A DNA stretch of 64,000 bases from a virus, in the IMG/VR virus record IMGVR_UViG_3300037510_000657, positions 15,013-79,012 of that record; one strand, given 5' to 3'. A model generated the notes under the pieces. It was not told where the DNA came from, searched no databases, and saw nothing but the letters and a program-made list of their open reading frames with translations. This document shows positions 2,883 to 24,745 of the stretch, piece after piece. A program made the position numbers and the translations under genes. Numbering within the stretch: position 1 is the first letter of the stretch; each line of letters begins with the position of its first letter.

Positions 2883-3365
2883 ATGTCCACCGCCCCTCAC
2901 CTGAATCTGCTCTCCCCGGTTCTGCCGGTCGATCGCCGTGACTTCTACATGGACGACCCGACCCTCCTGAACCCGAACAACGCCAACCCCATCATCGATG
3001 GCGAGTGGCTGTCGCTGGACACCACCAGCGGCAAGCTCATCCGTGGCTCGGGCACCCTGGCGACCATGTCGTTCCAGGTCTTCTCCGAGAAGGGTCGCTA
3101 CGACACCCAGCCCATCGGCAAGGTGACGACCCTGTTCCTCGGTGGCTACGAGGCCGAGACCGACGTCTACACGTCGACCGGCCTGGCCATCAACTCCTTC
3201 CTGGTGGTCGGCGACGTCACTGTCGGTGGCCTCACCAAGAAGGGCCTCATCAAGCTGCCGACCGCCTCGGGTTCGTACCTGGTGGTCGGCTCCGTGACCA
3301 AGCTCCCCACGGGCAAGGTCCGCTACGTCAAGTTCGCCTCGCCCTGGCTGCGAGTCGTCCCGTAA
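2883..3365 (+). CDS. Putative capsid decoration/minor capsid protein
   Basis: 160 aa beta-rich protein immediately upstream of the major capsid gene. Confidence 0.5.
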   Translation: MSTAPHLNLLSPVLPVDRRDFYMDDPTLLNPNNANPIIDGEWLSLDTTSGKLIRGSGTLATMSFQVFSEKGRYDTQPIGKVTTLFLGGYEAETDVYTSTGLAINSFLVVGDVTVGGLTKKGLIKLPTASGSYLVVGSVTKLPTGKVRYVKFASPWLRVVP

Positions 3366-3415
3366 CCGAGCCGGAACAACCCGGTTAACTGAAGAACAGG
3401 AAACAGGAGATCACA

Positions 3416-4531
3416 ATGAGCAACGTTCCGGCGAGAGTACTGAACGACCTCTTCAACCAGCGGCTGGACACGTCCGAAGGCCGCGAGAAGGTCGCCGAGC
3501 AGGGTTCGGTCTACATCCGTGACCGTCTGCGCGAGGTCTGCTTCGTGGACAAGATCCTGCCCCCCGACCCGGTCACCCGGGCGGACTGCCAGGTCTCGGT
3601 CAACCACGACACGCTCGTGAAGATCGTCGAGATCGAGCCCAAGAGCCGCGCGATGACCATGTCGTTCCGTGGCCAGCCCACGGCGCGCTTCATCCGCGCT
3701 CCCCGCGTCGAGTGCCCCTTCTACACCATCTCCTCGGAGAAGTTCGAGAAGACGGAGCAGGAGCTCCTGGCGTACCAGATGCCGATCACCAAGGTGATCG
3801 AGGACAACTCGGTCAAGGATCTCCAGGAGATCAAGGACCGCGAGTTCCTCCGCTACATCGAGGCGGCGGTCCAGGCCCTGCAGTCGGATGCGAACGGTGG
3901 CGCGACCGCGCTCCGCGCGTCGACCTACGCGGCGACCGTCAAGAAGTCGGTCATCAAGGGCATCGGCGCCCAGGGCGCGTCGTCGGATGACTTCACGGTC
4001 TACCCGATCCTGCGCCCCGACCTGGTGAACCTCTTCAAGCTCATGGACGGTGAGCGTCTGCGTACGGAGCGGTTCATCATGACCGAGCCGGACTACGACG
4101 ACGTCCTCGCCTGGACCCTCCAGGACATGGGCGACAAGATGCAGTCGGAGACCATGGTCGACGGCTACAAGTACAACACGCTGCTCGGCCGCAAGCTGAT
4201 CCGCACCATCAAGACCGACATCCTGCGCATCGGCAACGTGTACGCGTTCGCCGCGCCGGAGTTCCTCGGCAAGAACTTCGTCCTCAACAACACGAAGTTC
4301 TACATCGACAAGGTGGCGAACCTGATCACCTGGCAGTCGTGGATGGACATCGGCATGATCATCGCGAACATCGCGTCGGTCCGGAAGCTCGAGCTGTACC
4401 CCGGCTCGGTGACCACCTCGGCCACCGACTCGGGCTACGCGGCGAAGCTGCCCGTGGAAGAGGACGAGCTGGGCGCGGAGAACAACAAGGTCGACAGCGG
4501 CCTCAAGTACCCCGACGTCTCGCAGTTCTAA
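3416..4531 (+). CDS. Major capsid protein (probably HK97 fold)
   Basis: 371 aa; strong SD; strongly biased codons; terminator downstream; position after scaffold/decoration-like genes. Confidence 0.7.
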   Translation: MSNVPARVLNDLFNQRLDTSEGREKVAEQGSVYIRDRLREVCFVDKILPPDPVTRADCQVSVNHDTLVKIVEIEPKSRAMTMSFRGQPTARFIRAPRVECPFYTISSEKFEKTEQELLAYQMPITKVIEDNSVKDLQEIKDREFLRYIEAAVQALQSDANGGATALRASTYAATVKKSVIKGIGAQGASSDDFTVYPILRPDLVNLFKLMDGERLRTERFIMTEPDYDDVLAWTLQDMGDKMQSETMVDGYKYNTLLGRKLIRTIKTDILRIGNVYAFAAPEFLGKNFVLNNTKFYIDKVANLITWQSWMDIGMIIANIASVRKLELYPGSVTTSATDSGYAAKLPVEEDELGAENNKVDSGLKYPDVSQF

Positions 4532-18904: not shown

Positions 18905-19142
18905 GCTTCTCTTCCCTGTTCCATCGGCGCCACCCGACGATGTTGATGTAGAAGAAGGCGATGTGGTTGATGAAGAGGGGCCAGGCGAACGCGAAGAAGG
19001 AGTAGATAATCCAGGCCACGTTGGCGACCAGCCGGATCATCCACCCCACCTTGCTCTTCGTGGTGAGCTTCATGTTGCCCCACACGTTGAGCACGAACGC
19101 GCCCCAGCCGAGGACTTCGGCGGCCAGGCGTATGGGCGTCAC
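18834..19142 (-). CDS. PnuC/PQ-loop-like 3-TM membrane protein
   Basis: GTG 19142 overlaps upstream stop; GWMIRLVANVAWIIY...FYINIVGWRRW. Confidence 0.5.
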   Translation of the reverse strand: MTPIRLAAEVLGWGAFVLNVWGNMKLTTKSKVGWMIRLVANVAWIIYSFFAFAWPLFINHIAFFYINIVGWRRWNREEKHAQSQPHRTESPGPLAEKTEAPG

Positions 19143-20284
19143 AGAGTAGACGCCAGCGTCTTGCCGGTGACCTGCCAGTACCGATTGTGGAGGTAGGCGT
19201 ACTTCTCCGACCAGTCGAGGTGCTGCATCTTCTCCCACAGCTCCTCCTTGATGGAGTTGGGATAGCAGCCGGTGTAGCTGGCGATGGCCCCGACGACCCT
19301 TGCCACGAGGTGGATGTAGAACGTGAAGGCCAGCCCACGAGCGATGGGCTCCCAGGTACTCGCCTCCTCCACCTCGCGGAGGAAACGATCGTCCTGCATC
19401 GCCGCTGCCGCCATGGCGTCGGCCGCGGTGTAGGCGGCCAACATCCGTTTCTCGACGGTGCGAAAGTCCATCTCCGCGAACACGGGGACGGGTGCCTTCG
19501 ATTCCTTGTGGAGGGCATCCGAGAAGAGCACGGGCTTCTTGGGGCTGACCCATTCCTGGATGTCAGAGAACCTCACCGGCTTTGCCGCCATCCGTGGCTT
19601 GGGAGGATCGAACTCGGGGCCGAGGTAGCTCATCCGCCCGGTCTCGACGAGAGGTGTGCGCTTGCTCGTCTCGTTCGGCGTGGACCAGCGTCGAGGCGGA
19701 GGGAGAGCACTGAGAGCGTACTGCCAACCCTCCACCCTCTCGTTGATGGCCTGCTCTCGCTTGTACGCCTTCGCAGCGTCCCGGTCGTCCTCGAAGATGC
19801 CGCAGTCGTCACACCGCTCGACCATCTCGGTCTCGTGGTTGAGGAAGTAGCCGGGGCAGCCGGGAGAGCAGGACACCGGCTTCGAGAGCGAGGTGCGCTT
19901 GAACTGCTCGGCGCCCATGCCGCTCATGAACTCTGTCATGCCCGGCCACGCCTTCAGCCAGTCCTCCCTCAGCTTCGCGGCCTGCTCCACCGTGATCTTC
20001 AACGGCAGCATCGGCGAGGGGCCGCGTCGAGTCTCGGTGTCGAGCGCAGCCATGACCGCCACGTCACTGACCCCGTCCTTCGAGCGGTCGACTCCGACGA
20101 CGGTCTTCGGCCCGAACTCGTAGACCACCTCGTCGTGGAGGTTGAACTGACCCTTGAGCTCGATGTCCGGGTTCATCTTGAGAACGTTCTGCACGACCTC
20201 TTCCTCGTGCTCTCGTAGCTCTGCCATGAGCCGCTCGGCCGTCTTGGCATAGGCGTAGCGGTCCATGTTGCGGAAGTACTTCAT
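19139..20284 (-). CDS. Protein with scrambled family A DNA polymerase motif fragments
   Basis: LHDEVVYEF, WLKAWPGM, TGRMS, MDFRTVEKRMLA; ATGA coupling at 20284. Confidence 0.5.
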   Translation of the reverse strand: MKYFRNMDRYAYAKTAERLMAELREHEEEVVQNVLKMNPDIELKGQFNLHDEVVYEFGPKTVVGVDRSKDGVSDVAVMAALDTETRRGPSPMLPLKITVEQAAKLREDWLKAWPGMTEFMSGMGAEQFKRTSLSKPVSCSPGCPGYFLNHETEMVERCDDCGIFEDDRDAAKAYKREQAINERVEGWQYALSALPPPRRWSTPNETSKRTPLVETGRMSYLGPEFDPPKPRMAAKPVRFSDIQEWVSPKKPVLFSDALHKESKAPVPVFAEMDFRTVEKRMLAAYTAADAMAAAAMQDDRFLREVEEASTWEPIARGLAFTFYIHLVARVVGAIASYTGCYPNSIKEELWEKMQHLDWSEKYAYLHNRYWQVTGKTLASTL

Positions 20285-20532
20285 CTCCCGACGGAGAGCA
20301 AGCCCCGGCGAACCATACGACGGCGGACCGGTTTGTTCGCCACCAGATCGTTCGTCACCGCCCTCTGGTACACCATCTGCGCCAGTGTCTCGAGGTTGAT
20401 CTCGTACACCTTGTGCCGGCGATGGATCCGTACCTGCGCCAGGTTGTTGTCCCGATCGATGGTGATGGTCGCCTTCTGCACCTTGTTCGGTGCGTCGAAT
20501 CCCGCTTCCACTTCGAAGTGCGCCTTGGCCAT
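20281..20532 (-). CDS. Hypothetical protein
   Basis: SD GAGGAG; 83 aa. Confidence 0.55.
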   Translation of the reverse strand: MAKAHFEVEAGFDAPNKVQKATITIDRDNNLAQVRIHRRHKVYEINLETLAQMVYQRAVTNDLVANKPVRRRMVRRGLLSVGR

Positions 20533-20744
20533 TGTAGAACTCCTCTGCAGTCGTTGGGGTTGCCTGCCCGGCGAGGATGTGGGATCCCCCGCGCAGGCGG
20601 TACAGCTTGATGTCCTGGTGGGTGACGGGGATGGCCTTCACCACCTGCAGGTCACCATCGTAGGCGATGTCCTTCCAGACGCTGTGCTGCTTGTGGTAGC
20701 CAGCGGCCTTGAGAACCTCGGGGTTGACTCGGATGTAGACGAGC

Positions 20745-21002
20745 TCAGTCATCAGTCTCCTCCTCTTCGTCGGCTGTCTCATCGTCGTCGAAGGCGATGA
20801 GGTTCATGAGCAGGGCCTGCTCGGCACCGACGACGGTGCTCTGCTCGCAGTCCGGACAGTCGTAGCCTTCAGCGTCCGGTTCGGTGCACTCCCGCGTGAA
20901 GCTCTTGCAGGTGGTGCACCAGCCGGTGTACGACTCGGTGGCCTCGGCGTACTCGCTCTCTTTCACCACTGACGGACCGTGCTTCTCCTGAGTCGCTTCC
21001 AT
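20745..21002 (-). CDS. Small Zn-ribbon protein
   Basis: WCTTC...CPDC; SD AGGAG; first gene after motif at 21038. Confidence 0.6.
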   Translation of the reverse strand: MEATQEKHGPSVVKESEYAEATESYTGWCTTCKSFTRECTEPDAEGYDCPDCEQSTVVGAEQALLMNLIAFDDDETADEEEETDD

Positions 21003-21079: not shown

Positions 21080-23170
21080 TTAGCCCCGTGTGAGGTACGT
21101 GGTGAAGTTCTCGATGACCAGCCTCGAGAGCGCGACGGCCAGCCCCTCCTCGCTGGTCCTTCGCCAGAAGCGCTTGGGCCCGAACATCTGAAGGCACTTG
21201 TCCTCGGGGATGGACTCCTCGCCGATGACCAAGGTGAAGACCTTGATGCCCGATGCACGAGCTCGTTGGATCTCCTTTGCCACGAACGCCCGCAGCATGG
21301 ATTCGGGGATGGTACCGCCCGAGGTCTTCTGCTGGTAGGGAGAACCGTCGGTGAGGAGGAAAAGGCACTTCGCCATGCCCGACGAGACGTAGGACCGCAG
21401 GTGTGTGGTGGCCACGTGGATGGCAGGTGCCATCGGAGTGAGACCGCCGCACTCCACCGGTACGTTGAGCGGGAGTCCGTTGAAGGGATTCCTCACGGTG
21501 CTCACGCCCTTGTGCCCGTTGCAGTCCTTGTCGTACCGGTAGATCCACACCTCGCCCGGGTCGGCCTTCCGAACGAAGTTGTTGCCCGTGACAGCGGTTG
21601 CACCGCGGAAGCCCCATTGGCTCCCCATGACGAAGGGGAAGTCGAGGGACTTCTTCAGCAGCTCCATGCCGTGGCAGACCTCGACGTACGCGGTGTCCAT
21701 CGAGCCCGACATGTCCGAGAGCACTGCGTAGGCGAACCCACGCTGAGTGTCCTCGGACTCGAAGACGTTCGGGTCGGCTCCGCCGCACAGGTACTGCACG
21801 AAGGCAGGCACGTCCACCACAGGACCTGTCGGTCCGCGCTTCGCCTTCCTGCGCCCGAGGGCCTTGAAGAACGAGGAACGCATGCGCTGCACTACCAGCA
21901 GCTCCTCGGGAGTGAGCTCGATAGCCGAGCCCTCGACGTCCTCTGGCTTCACGTCGATGAGGAGGGTCTTGGCCTTGGTGTCCGAGATCAGCATGGAGGC
22001 CATGCTCTTCTGGGAGATGCCGTCTCTCAGCTGATCGACAGCATCACGCACGTCCTGGTCCGGCGGTCCGGACAGAAGAGCGTCCACCTCTTGTGGGTCG
22101 AGCTTCTCGGGCTGGAGAGCTCGAGCCACCATGGCCCGTGCCACCTGAGCTCCGGGGCTCTTCATGTCGTCAGGCGATGGGTCCGCGTGCGTCTCGTTCT
22201 CGTCGAGCTCCTCGGCCCCTTGCACTAGCTTGTCGAGGCCCTTGACGTTGGGGGTGGTGTCCGGAGTGCGTAGCTGTGCCTCGAGTGGCCCGGGCGGAGA
22301 GGGGCCACCTGCTGATGGCGGGGGTGGCGGCTGTGGTTGCTCTTGCTGCTGTACGAGTGCTGCCAGGCACTGCTCGACCACTACCCGCAGGTCGAGCAGC
22401 ATGTTGGCGAAGCCGCGGTACTGCACCTTCTCCGTGCCCCACTTCACGATGGCCCGGAGCTGGTCCCACTTCGGGTCAGAGGGCAGGTCGAAGTGGGTCT
22501 GGAAGACGAAGGTGATGAAGTCGTTGCTGGTCTTCTCCTCGGTGAGCCGGCGCCACCGCTTCCAGATCTCATCGGAGGACCCGGGGTAGACCAGGCTCCA
22601 CAGGCTGTTGCACCTGATGTCGTCGAAGGCGTTGACGAGGATGGAGAGGAACTCGACGATCTTCTGCTCGTTCAGGTGGGGCGGGATGCGGTTGCTGATG
22701 AAGAGCATTCGAGCGAACTGCTCGCAGAAGATCTTCCGAGCCACCAGGTTGCTCTTGAAGATGATGTGCTGCCACTCGTGCTCGAAGCCCCGGTAGATCT
22801 GCTGAGCGCTACACAGCAGGCACGGCGCCGGGTTCACCCCGTTGACGACCGCTCCTGGCTTGCCTCTCCACTCGTGCCCACAGGCCAGGGAGTAGGTGTG
22901 CGTGGTCTCGGCGATGGGGGCGTCGATGATGCCCGTGATCACCTGCTCGAGCCGCTCGCCGAAGTTGACGAAGATCTTCTTCGCGCAGTCGGTGGCGTTG
23001 TTGGGGCCCTGCTCGATGCGGAAGTTCTTCTTGAAGAGGTTGTTGAAGATCTCGTTCGTCCGGTAGAACGGATCCTTGTCCAGGAGGGGGACTCCCGGGA
23101 TGGGGTGCTCGGTGTCCGTGTCGGGGCCGCCGGAGGTGAAGTGGCTACGGCTCCTCTTGCTTCTCGACAT
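21080..23170 (-). CDS. VWA (MIDAS) domain protein, partner of MoxR-type AAA+
   Basis: SDMSGSM, GLTP, LLTDGSP; SD GAGGAG before ATG 23170. Confidence 0.8.
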   Translation of the reverse strand: MSRSKRSRSHFTSGGPDTDTEHPIPGVPLLDKDPFYRTNEIFNNLFKKNFRIEQGPNNATDCAKKIFVNFGERLEQVITGIIDAPIAETTHTYSLACGHEWRGKPGAVVNGVNPAPCLLCSAQQIYRGFEHEWQHIIFKSNLVARKIFCEQFARMLFISNRIPPHLNEQKIVEFLSILVNAFDDIRCNSLWSLVYPGSSDEIWKRWRRLTEEKTSNDFITFVFQTHFDLPSDPKWDQLRAIVKWGTEKVQYRGFANMLLDLRVVVEQCLAALVQQQEQPQPPPPPSAGGPSPPGPLEAQLRTPDTTPNVKGLDKLVQGAEELDENETHADPSPDDMKSPGAQVARAMVARALQPEKLDPQEVDALLSGPPDQDVRDAVDQLRDGISQKSMASMLISDTKAKTLLIDVKPEDVEGSAIELTPEELLVVQRMRSSFFKALGRRKAKRGPTGPVVDVPAFVQYLCGGADPNVFESEDTQRGFAYAVLSDMSGSMDTAYVEVCHGMELLKKSLDFPFVMGSQWGFRGATAVTGNNFVRKADPGEVWIYRYDKDCNGHKGVSTVRNPFNGLPLNVPVECGGLTPMAPAIHVATTHLRSYVSSGMAKCLFLLTDGSPYQQKTSGGTIPESMLRAFVAKEIQRARASGIKVFTLVIGEESIPEDKCLQMFGPKRFWRRTSEEGLAVALSRLVIENFTTYLTRG

Positions 23171-23513
23171 GCTTCGTCTCCTCGTACAGGTGCAGCAGGC
23201 CAACTCCCGGCTTCTTGGCCAGGGCCATGCCGAGCCAGGTGAGCTGGTCACCCTCCATGCCGGCGCCGCTGGGCATGATGAAGAAGTGCCGCTCCTCCAG
23301 CTCCGCGGTCTCGTCCAGGCTGGCGTCCACCTCGACGATCATGGTGGGCACCTCCTCGAACAACCGCACGTTCTCCTGGCCAGGGATGGCGAGAGGGCTG
23401 GTGCGGTCGACGACGAGGAGTACGAAGCCCACCACCTTCGCTTCCTTGGGGAGGCGGGGGTGGAACTCCATCTTGCCAGAGGGGAAGTTGATTTCCAGGA
23501 TTCCGCGCTTCAT
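23145..23513 (-). CDS. Hypothetical protein
   Basis: ATGA coupling. Confidence 0.55.
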   Translation of the reverse strand: MKRGILEINFPSGKMEFHPRLPKEAKVVGFVLLVVDRTSPLAIPGQENVRLFEEVPTMIVEVDASLDETAELEERHFFIMPSGAGMEGDQLTWLGMALAKKPGVGLLHLYEETKHVEKQEEP

Positions 23514-23725
23514 GCCTTCTCCTTGAGGTACGTCTCGTGCAGCGTGCTGAAGTGGTCGTGCAGGGCTTCGGTGAAGTCCCAGTCGGCCTGCCTGTCGTCG
23601 ATGTCCTTGATGAGCTGCAGGAGGACGTCCTTGTCCATGTCCGCAACTGCCTCGAGCAAGCGCTCCCTGTCCATCTCGATGTGGAGGAACACGCTGCTGG
23701 TCTCTTCCTTGTTCTTCTGCTTCAT
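23510..23725 (-). CDS. Hypothetical acidic protein
   Basis: ATGA coupling. Confidence 0.55.
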   Translation of the reverse strand: MKQKNKEETSSVFLHIEMDRERLLEAVADMDKDVLLQLIKDIDDRQADWDFTEALHDHFSTLHETYLKEKA

Positions 23726-24711
23726 GTCGGCGTCCCCGTCGGGCCTCCCCAGAAGCTTCGCAGCTTCTTGTCGCCGAAGATGGAGTTCATCCGTCCCAGC
23801 ACGGTCTTACGGTCGGCTCCCTCGAACTTCAGTAGCACCAGCTGCAGCGCCGTGTCCATCCCGAGCTTGGCCACCGTGCGAATGAGGCGGTCGAGGTCTC
23901 GAGTGGAGAGCGCGTAGCCGGTGGCCTGCTGCCGAGTCTCCCTGGCGAAGCGGATGAGCAGGTCGAGCTGGGGGTCGGAGAGGCCAGGCCCAGGGATGCT
24001 CTTCAGGATGCGCTTCTCCTGCTCGTGCATCGGGTAGGTGACCTCGATCTCCTCGAAGCGGGACTTGAGGTCCTCGTTGAGGTCGTAGGTGCCGCCGTAC
24101 ACCGTCGGGTTCATCGTGCCGACCACCCAGATCTGAGCTCCGGGCTGGAGTCGATAGGTTCGGCCGATGTGCGGGATGGAGCACATCTTGCGGAAGTCGG
24201 TGACGGCGTTGAGCTGCTTCTGCACCTGCGGCGTGAGGGCGTTGATCTCCTCGAGCATCAGGATGCAGTAGCCGGTCTCGTTGGCGACGTCGATGGCGGT
24301 GGGGATGCAGCCGAGCGAGAAGACGGTCTCCTGCCCGATGATGAACTGGGAGCCCTGGAGGTCGTACTTCTTGGTGTCCTCCGAGCACTCCTGGATGACC
24401 AGCGGGATCTTGTTCATCGCTGCGTACGCGATGATGGAGAGGGACTTGCCGTCGCCCTTTGGTCCCTTCAGCAGAAGGTTCGACTCGAAGGCGATGCTGC
24501 GGTAGACGTTGTGGAGCTCGAAGATGTCCACGAACGCCGGCGGGTTCTGGACGTAGAGCTCTTCGGTGGGGCTGCGGGTGATGCGAACACGGACCTCGCT
24601 CTCCTCGGCGAAGTCGGGGCGAAGGAGCTCGTAGAGCACCTCACGTTGGTCGGCTGGTACCGTCTCGAGCCAGGTAGCCCATGCTGCCTGCGCCTGCTGG
24701 TTGTGACTCAT
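23722..24711 (-). CDS. MoxR/CbbQ/NirQ-type AAA+ ATPase
   Basis: Walker A GPKGDGKS; Walker B ILMLEEIN; GTMNP; SD GGAGG. Confidence 0.85.
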   Translation of the reverse strand: MSHNQQAQAAWATWLETVPADQREVLYELLRPDFAEESEVRVRITRSPTEELYVQNPPAFVDIFELHNVYRSIAFESNLLLKGPKGDGKSLSIIAYAAMNKIPLVIQECSEDTKKYDLQGSQFIIGQETVFSLGCIPTAIDVANETGYCILMLEEINALTPQVQKQLNAVTDFRKMCSIPHIGRTYRLQPGAQIWVVGTMNPTVYGGTYDLNEDLKSRFEEIEVTYPMHEQEKRILKSIPGPGLSDPQLDLLIRFARETRQQATGYALSTRDLDRLIRTVAKLGMDTALQLVLLKFEGADRKTVLGRMNSIFGDKKLRSFWGGPTGTPT

Positions 24712-24745
24712 TCGAACCTCCGGGGAAACCAAATGGCTTCGGCCG

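Follow-up and report, generated by a model that had tools for sequence, protein, structure and literature searches.

An orphan phage protein combines a portable four-cysteine module with out-of-order segments resembling family A DNA polymerase motifs

Can a phage gene whose product carries motifs of the family A DNA polymerases (PolA) in scrambled order still encode a polymerase palm, is it put together from polymerase pieces, or is the resemblance fortuitous? This question is raised by P0001, a minus-strand gene of a large uncultured phage in the 64,000-nucleotide stretch of viral DNA analysed here (the window; bases 15013–79012 of a 105,876 bp IMG/VR viral contig, ∼50% complete according to CheckV). 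An initial annotation had read in its translation a motif C-like segment, a helix like that following motif B, a Cys-rich insert, a TGRLSS-like motif and motif A, and had suggested that the product could be a mini-enzyme with a permuted palm, a decoy or inhibitor of PolA, or a patchwork made by recombination.

The DNA has a GC content of 62–67%, and frame 1 of P0001 displays coding-type GC3 values of 0.85–0.97 from about position 20300 down to 19200. The ATG of P0001 at 20284 shares an ATGA with the stop codon of an upstream 83-aa ORF, and a public gene caller had recorded an identical 381-aa product in the protein collection. Because of the GC3 profile, the ATGA overlap and this matching product, P0001 is a real gene and its originally proposed coordinates are right. 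A 547-aa frame (19139–20782) in the mechanical ORF list was discarded as artefactual, arising from an off-frame stretch that lacks stops; its middle part is non-coding by GC3. Its appearance in the list is explained by a coding-type GC3 frame on the minus strand from 20782/20752 (MTELVYIRVNPEV...), which meets no stop before the 83-aa ORF opens in another frame at 20532; this 20533–20782 frame could reflect a single-base error in the assembly, programmed frameshifting or a short gene with an unplaced end. The 83-aa ORF itself is coding, as judged by GC3, in a frame different from that of P0001. Neither a sigma-70 promoter nor a convincing terminator was found around P0001.

The protein begins with helices (residues 9–37), followed by a C-like hairpin, a YF-like helix, a four-cysteine (Cys4) module, a predicted-disordered Pro/Lys-rich segment, a TGRLSS-to-motif A block and a helical tail (Table 1). 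Within the hairpin, QFNLHDEVVYEF (residues 46–57, window 20114–20149, His codon 20135–20137) was paired by HMMER --max with PolA llqvHDElvfev, and within the YF-like helix lies EQAAKLREDWLKAWPGMTEF (residues 100–119, window 19928–19987). The next block contains, in this order, TGRLSS, IP.R, IR..F and motif A with D273, E278 and R280, and then a helix; here TGRMS occupies residues 215–219 (window 19628–19642) and FAEMDFRTVEKRMLA residues 269–283 (window 19436–19480). TGRLSS and motif A thus appear in native order and at nearly native spacing, with C and YF upstream of both, and the overall order in P0001 is C, YF, Cys4, TGRLSS, A in place of the canonical TGRLSS-A-B-YF-6-C. Motif B, i.e. the O-helix (R...K...FG..YG), is absent, as its sub-profile (S8) scored 4.7 and was matched or beaten by 18 of 50 controls, and motif 6 is absent as well (sub-profile S7). 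All motif positions of the initial annotation were confirmed on the P0001 translation, together with the permuted order, the absence of motif B, for which the S8 score lies within the control range, and the retention of both palm aspartates, D51 aligning with the Asp of motif C and D273 with that of motif A.

Table 1. Positions in the window of P0001, its segments and the two adjoining genes, with the results of the PolA sub-profile comparisons.
Feature	Residues of P0001	Window position	Strand	Evidence	PolA sub-profile result
P0001 gene, 381-aa orphan protein	1–381	19139..20284	-	Stop codon 19139–19141; GC3 and ATGA start overlap	
PolA motif C-like beta-hairpin with H50-D51-E52	42–58	20111..20161	-	HMMER --max, sub-profile	Motif C hairpin, 17 columns: score 13.6, HH P 0.012, HH probability 2%; best control 8.7 (n = 50)
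YF..YPGV-like helix (PolA 't.eeA..li..YF..fPgV', after motif B)	97–122	19919..19996	-	Sub-profile	YF helix, 26 columns: score 22.3, HH P 3e-4, HH probability 17%; best control 12.7 (n = 45)
Cys4 zinc-ribbon-like module and long helix	139–193	19706..19870	-	Database homologues, AlphaFold	
PolA palm-collinear block (N-terminal half of the palm)	214–306	19367..19645	-	End-to-end hhalign	A block (TGRLSS to D.H), 74 columns: score 29.1, HH P 1.7e-5, HH probability 55%
C-terminal helical tail	307–381	19142..19366	-	hhalign p 0.9 versus shuffles	No PolA match
83-aa ORF, upstream, translationally coupled to P0001		20281..20532	-	ATGA overlap; own AGAGGAG ribosome-binding site	
PnuC (NMN) transporter-like small membrane-protein gene, ∼100 codons		18834..19151	-	PF04973 partial match; GC3 frame switch	

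Several simpler ways of accounting for this arrangement were considered and rejected. A simple circular permutation does not apply, as rotating the canonical order never produces C, YF, TGRLSS, A. An internal duplication with two A-B-YF repeats was not borne out by Smith-Waterman comparison of residues 1–130 with residues 196–381, which gave scores no better than shuffles. When the N-terminal half was read as collinear with A-DIH-B-YF, local hhalign scored 25.5, but nearly all of this was contributed by the YF block, for which the score is 22.3 on its own. Finally, TGRMS could be taken as the later GYV.T..GRRR.LP motif, but both HMMER and hhalign favoured TGRLSS.

No match for P0001, be it to PF00476, the family A polymerase domain, or to any other family, was obtained from Pfam at E ≤ 1, nor was there one in NCBIfam, PHROGs or PADLOC. 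A six-frame search of the whole contig with PF00476 was empty at E ≤ 10, where relatives score 316–340 bits, and phmmer against the PDB with the whole protein and with both halves retrieved nothing relevant at E ≤ 10. BLASTP gave a best E-value of 0.32 among 90 PolA sequences and was not significant with the PolAs of the phage lineage itself, and a PolA search of the genome contigs yielded nothing. A word-indexed search of 5.8 billion proteins returned only P0001 itself, whereas exhaustive phmmer against 1.84 billion representative proteins found 15 others, 14 of which match residues 133–198 only; the match of the remaining one, P0015 (1099 aa), is confined to residues 205–255 (E 7e-4). Neither tblastn of 50,697 phage records nor the viral contigs nor tblastn of the syntenic loci of relatives revealed a homologue, and P0001 is a singleton, unique so far and in this sense lineage-specific. 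The expectation that homologues would preserve the motif arrangement therefore failed in the 5.8-billion and 1.84-billion protein searches, the viral contigs and the syntenic loci. The expectation that each segment would match PolA failed in ordinary searches but held for three blocks when targeted end-to-end sub-profiles were used. As the initial annotation had named a lack of PolA matches, or of any homologue with the same arrangement, as what would count against it, the outcome of the ordinary searches leaves its reading half refuted. With the whole protein as a query, the ESM Atlas named ten neighbours, all of them PF00476 clusters, at a weak score of 0.81, a level that one in three shuffled proteins also attains; a query with only the N-terminal 130 residues found no match there.

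The targeted comparisons employed a PolA profile and sub-profiles built from 90 viral PolA sequences. With the filters switched off, HMMER placed segments of P0001 on the very motifs that had been named, at ∼0–6 bits. The scores were reached by none of 2000 shuffles for the YF..fPkV helix (residues 95–121), by one for TGRLSS (residues 213–224), by two for motif A (residues 270–297) and by 70 for motif C (residues 41–57); the motif C hairpin had −1.3 bits with HMMER --max, and 36 of 2000 shuffles were as good. Local hhalign of residues 268–306 scored 33.0 (HH P 0.0019), which none of 199 shuffles reached and to which the reversed sequence compares with 15.1. In a comparison with 96 real ORFs from this contig, P0001 ranked top at 32.8, ahead of a runner-up at 25.3; whole-protein local scores of 25–28 are found in ∼3% of real proteins.

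The end-to-end alignment of the A block covers 73 of its 74 columns with two insertions, and T215, G216, R217, S219, D273, E278, R280 and A283 fall on conserved positions. A motif A preceded by TGRLSS is thus present in block 214–306 at motif level only. The control ORFs came from this phage group, and their highest scores for this block were 12.7 among 115 real ORFs and 23.2 among 252 six-frame ORFs. The latter value belongs to a 255-codon ORF of a related 210 kb phage (L021, plus strand, frame +1, ∼2940–3710), which is without any of the catalytic residues and was taken as a chance match that calibrates the false-positive tail. Because this control makes the tail heavier than the Gumbel fit, the p-value of the A block was taken as ∼2e-4 and not 2e-6, all such p-values resting on small null samples of 45–367 control sequences. 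The motif C hairpin is the weakest of the three PolA-like blocks. The motif B-to-GYV.T stretch and the motif 6-to-C-terminus stretch found no match to P0001 as sub-profiles, and global alignment of the N-terminal region to PolA motif 6-to-end failed (p 0.28). Scores of hhalign -glob with long templates (S5, S9) were artefactual and were discarded. The resemblance to PolA exceeds chance in targeted tests only. P0001 and PolA share ∼16–25% identity. The lineage's own PolA was also considered as the source of the blocks and rejected, the blocks being not closest to the PolAs of the lineage.

By comparison, the Cys4 module in the centre of the protein, with the cysteine pairs C139/C143 and C158/C161, is the sole solid homology in P0001. 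Its relatives were recovered by phmmer over residues 133–198 with E-values from 5e-11 to 7e-4, and the carriers listed are P0002–P0016 and the locus L104:5472-5705. They are stand-alone proteins of 77–146 aa or fusions to unrelated domains; the 77-aa protein sits among small ORFs of a 77 kb viral contig, and P0002 has the module twice, ahead of a TSCPD domain. The alignment gives the consensus C-x3-C-x-G-[WY]-F-x-N-x-E-T-x2-[IV]-E-R-C-D-x-C-x2-F-x2-D-x2-A, in which C139, C143, G145, C158, D159, C161, D167 and A170 are invariant. Residues 139–170 of P0001 share all the invariant positions of these mini-domain proteins, whereas PolA-like flanks occur in P0001 only. Pfam has no model for the module, and a DNA-pattern search of the genome contigs produced chance matches only. 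AlphaFold, supplied with the Cys4 alignment, modelled residues 140–190 at a pLDDT of 93–96 as a hairpin (146–149/154–157) followed by a helix (167–193), so that the module is predicted to be a zinc-ribbon-like unit.

The structure predictions were less informative for the remainder of the chain. AlphaFold placed strands at residues 43–49 and 52–57 of the motif C-like hairpin and modelled the tail helices (307–381) at a pLDDT of 67–85, while, apart from these helices and the Cys4 module, most of P0001 had values below 60, and no palm was built. Foldseek and VIA-align retrieved generic helical bundles only. The top VIA-align row, Thg1 (3wbz_A; Z 7.1, rmsd 1.9, 64 residues), covers the tail (residues 310–381) only and is at background level, and Pfam found no Thg1 domains in P0001.

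The locus was compared with those of related phages, which were found via a vWA-like neighbour. P0001 belongs to a block of minus-strand genes, and the head module begins downstream on the opposite strand; nearly all neighbouring genes are without a Pfam match. Upstream on the minus strand lies a conserved pair consisting of an AAA_5 (MoxR/CobS-like) ATPase (23722–24732) and a 723-aa vWA-like protein (21080–23251), the latter with a weak C-terminal vWA match and 37–42% identical in three related phage contigs. Two relatives are near-complete (199 and 210 kb), and each carries a canonical full-length PolA of 657–676 aa (L004:781-2754 and L005:1489-3519). In each of the three relatives, the slot that lies between the vWA gene and the head module's end is occupied by different genes: L002 encodes there a winged-helix protein, a receiver domain and a Cys-rich protein of 531 aa, L003 an unrelated 324-aa protein, and L022 several others including a CxxCxxCC protein.

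The 531-aa protein, P0017 (L002:11318-12913), has four homologues, P0018–P0021, and occupies the same slot as P0001 with a diverged Cys4-like module (hhalign Prob 36% versus P0001). Residues 231–256 of P0017 match the PolA YF-helix block with a score of 21.9; they are part of an inserted stretch which is unique within its own family and aligns with residues 78–122 of P0001. P0017, the only member with the YF-like block, otherwise differs from P0001 in that its Cys region comes first, the A block and the C hairpin are lacking, and its conserved C-terminal domain is missing from P0001. The P0017–P0021 proteins (454–531 aa) share an N-terminal multi-zinc-ribbon region including CGCGHGLP, and their C-terminal domain (LLGQLNEMTFQD..., VNGEQQPVNDP, GDYVLCIYPG) is strongly conserved with no Pfam match.

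Immediately downstream of P0001, the PnuC-like gene gave a PF04973 match with an E-value of 4.7e-6 and 27.1 bits (cut-off 27.3) over positions 3–71 of 175. Its product is fragment-sized, a piece of two to three helices, and the phage carries NAD-related genes as well. The region gives the impression of a site at which parts of genes are shuffled into new small genes, which fits a patchwork origin of P0001.

Compared with the family A DNA polymerases (PF00476; Klenow, Taq and T7 type), P0001 matches TGRLSS, motif A, YF..YPGV and the HDE hairpin at motif level but has no family-level match, and four elements are missing from it, namely motif B, motif 6, thumb and exonuclease domain. It is also shorter, 381 aa with a Cys4 insert and with C and YF upstream, as against 650–930 aa in the polymerases. 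With these four elements missing, P0001 cannot be a stand-alone templated DNA polymerase, and since the relatives in addition carry a normal PolA, it is not the replicase either. [quoted passage not shown] Like these, P0001 has its motif C upstream of motif A within a single chain. As far as that cited account extends, however, the viral RdRps belong to another branch of the superfamily, retain fingers, thumb and motif B and are conserved, active enzymes, whereas in P0001 C and A are ∼210 residues apart and motif B is gone; the likeness is one of analogy and not of membership.

Among the explanations for P0001, we tentatively prefer a mosaic accessory protein that would combine the Cys4 module with diverged PolA palm pieces and act in binding, a reading to which we give slightly less than even confidence. 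For the underlying claim that the blocks truly descend from PolA, the alignments tip the balance a little in favour. Of the readings offered initially, the patchwork fits best, in view of the portable Cys4 module, the variable slot, the PnuC fragment and the out-of-order blocks that score above their controls; the other two have a low probability, as set out below. The main competitor is coincidence, with P0001 an orphan whose only true homology is Cys4, and we regard this as a considerable possibility although not the favoured one. It would explain why Pfam, NCBIfam, PHROGs and PDB are all without a match and why pairwise BLAST stays at E-values of at least 0.32, and it is in keeping with the 23.2 that a control ORF devoid of catalytic residues attained on the A block, with the whole-protein local scores of 25–28 seen in some 3% of real proteins and with the failed global alignment of the N-terminal region to motif 6-to-end (p 0.28). 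The order of the blocks, not even a simple circular permutation, points the same way, and the motifs were picked by a motif-minded reader from ∼90 proteins with many families to choose from, a selection bias worth perhaps four orders of magnitude. Coincidence is harder to reconcile with three separate blocks that all resemble one family and each exceed every control, for which a rough estimate of the chance probability is 1e-6 to 1e-7 per protein–family pair. Nor would it predict the native order and nearly native spacing of TGRLSS and motif A, or that the residues retained (T, G, R, S; D, E, R, A; H, D, E) are the most conserved positions of PolA, and the Atlas independently gives PF00476.

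If the palm were still active, the C hairpin and the A strand would have to form a two-metal site for nucleotide transfer, with the zinc module possibly replacing the fingers. Both catalytic Asp residues are kept at ∼16–25% identity along with E278, R280 and H50/E52, a pattern that active-site selection would give but that may equally reflect bias of the profile and of the reader; the predicted secondary structure agrees, with a hairpin at C and a helix after A, and by analogy permuted palms do function in birnavirus-type RdRps, at least according to the work cited in PMC4207942 (Gorbalenya et al., 2002). However, P0001 has neither motif B nor motif 6 nor a thumb, C and A are separated by ∼210 residues that include a predicted-disordered stretch, AlphaFold builds no palm, and as P0001 is without homologues it is also without a sign of selection, so that we consider an active enzyme improbable. 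A decoy or inhibitor, in which the palm pieces would mimic surfaces of the phage or host polymerase and titrate a sensor of host defence or a partner of the polymerase, or else block host Pol I, appears similarly improbable. The PolA-like blocks and the location among accessory genes agree with it and nothing else does, whereas a mimic is expected to conserve surfaces and not buried catalytic motifs, and neither a PADLOC or anti-defence match nor a linked partner gene was found.

On the preferred reading of a mosaic accessory protein, the portable four-cysteine zinc-ribbon-like module would form the centre of P0001, and the diverged pieces flanking it, i.e. the C-type hairpin, the YF..YPGV helix and the TGRLSS-to-A half of the palm, would most likely derive from a family A polymerase gene. 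We infer that these pieces probably came together in their non-canonical order through illegitimate recombination within an accessory slot whose content changes fast. As to the mode of action, the zinc module would hold its partner, either nucleic acid or protein, and remnants of the palm may add a surface that binds metal, nucleotide or a partner.

Should the PolA resemblance be due to chance, the remaining gain would be the description of a widespread and uncatalogued Cys4 mini-domain, and P0001 would serve as a worked example of why collages of motifs in orphan proteins have to be tested by sub-profile with real proteins as controls. If the acidic motifs still form an active site, palm permutation would extend beyond the polymerases of RNA viruses to the Pol I family, and P0001 would represent a very small PolA-derived catalytic core, the counterpart among DNA polymerases to RdRps with permuted palms. 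Should the blocks truly descend from PolA, phages would be seen to build a new protein by reusing parts of an essential replication enzyme along with a portable zinc module.
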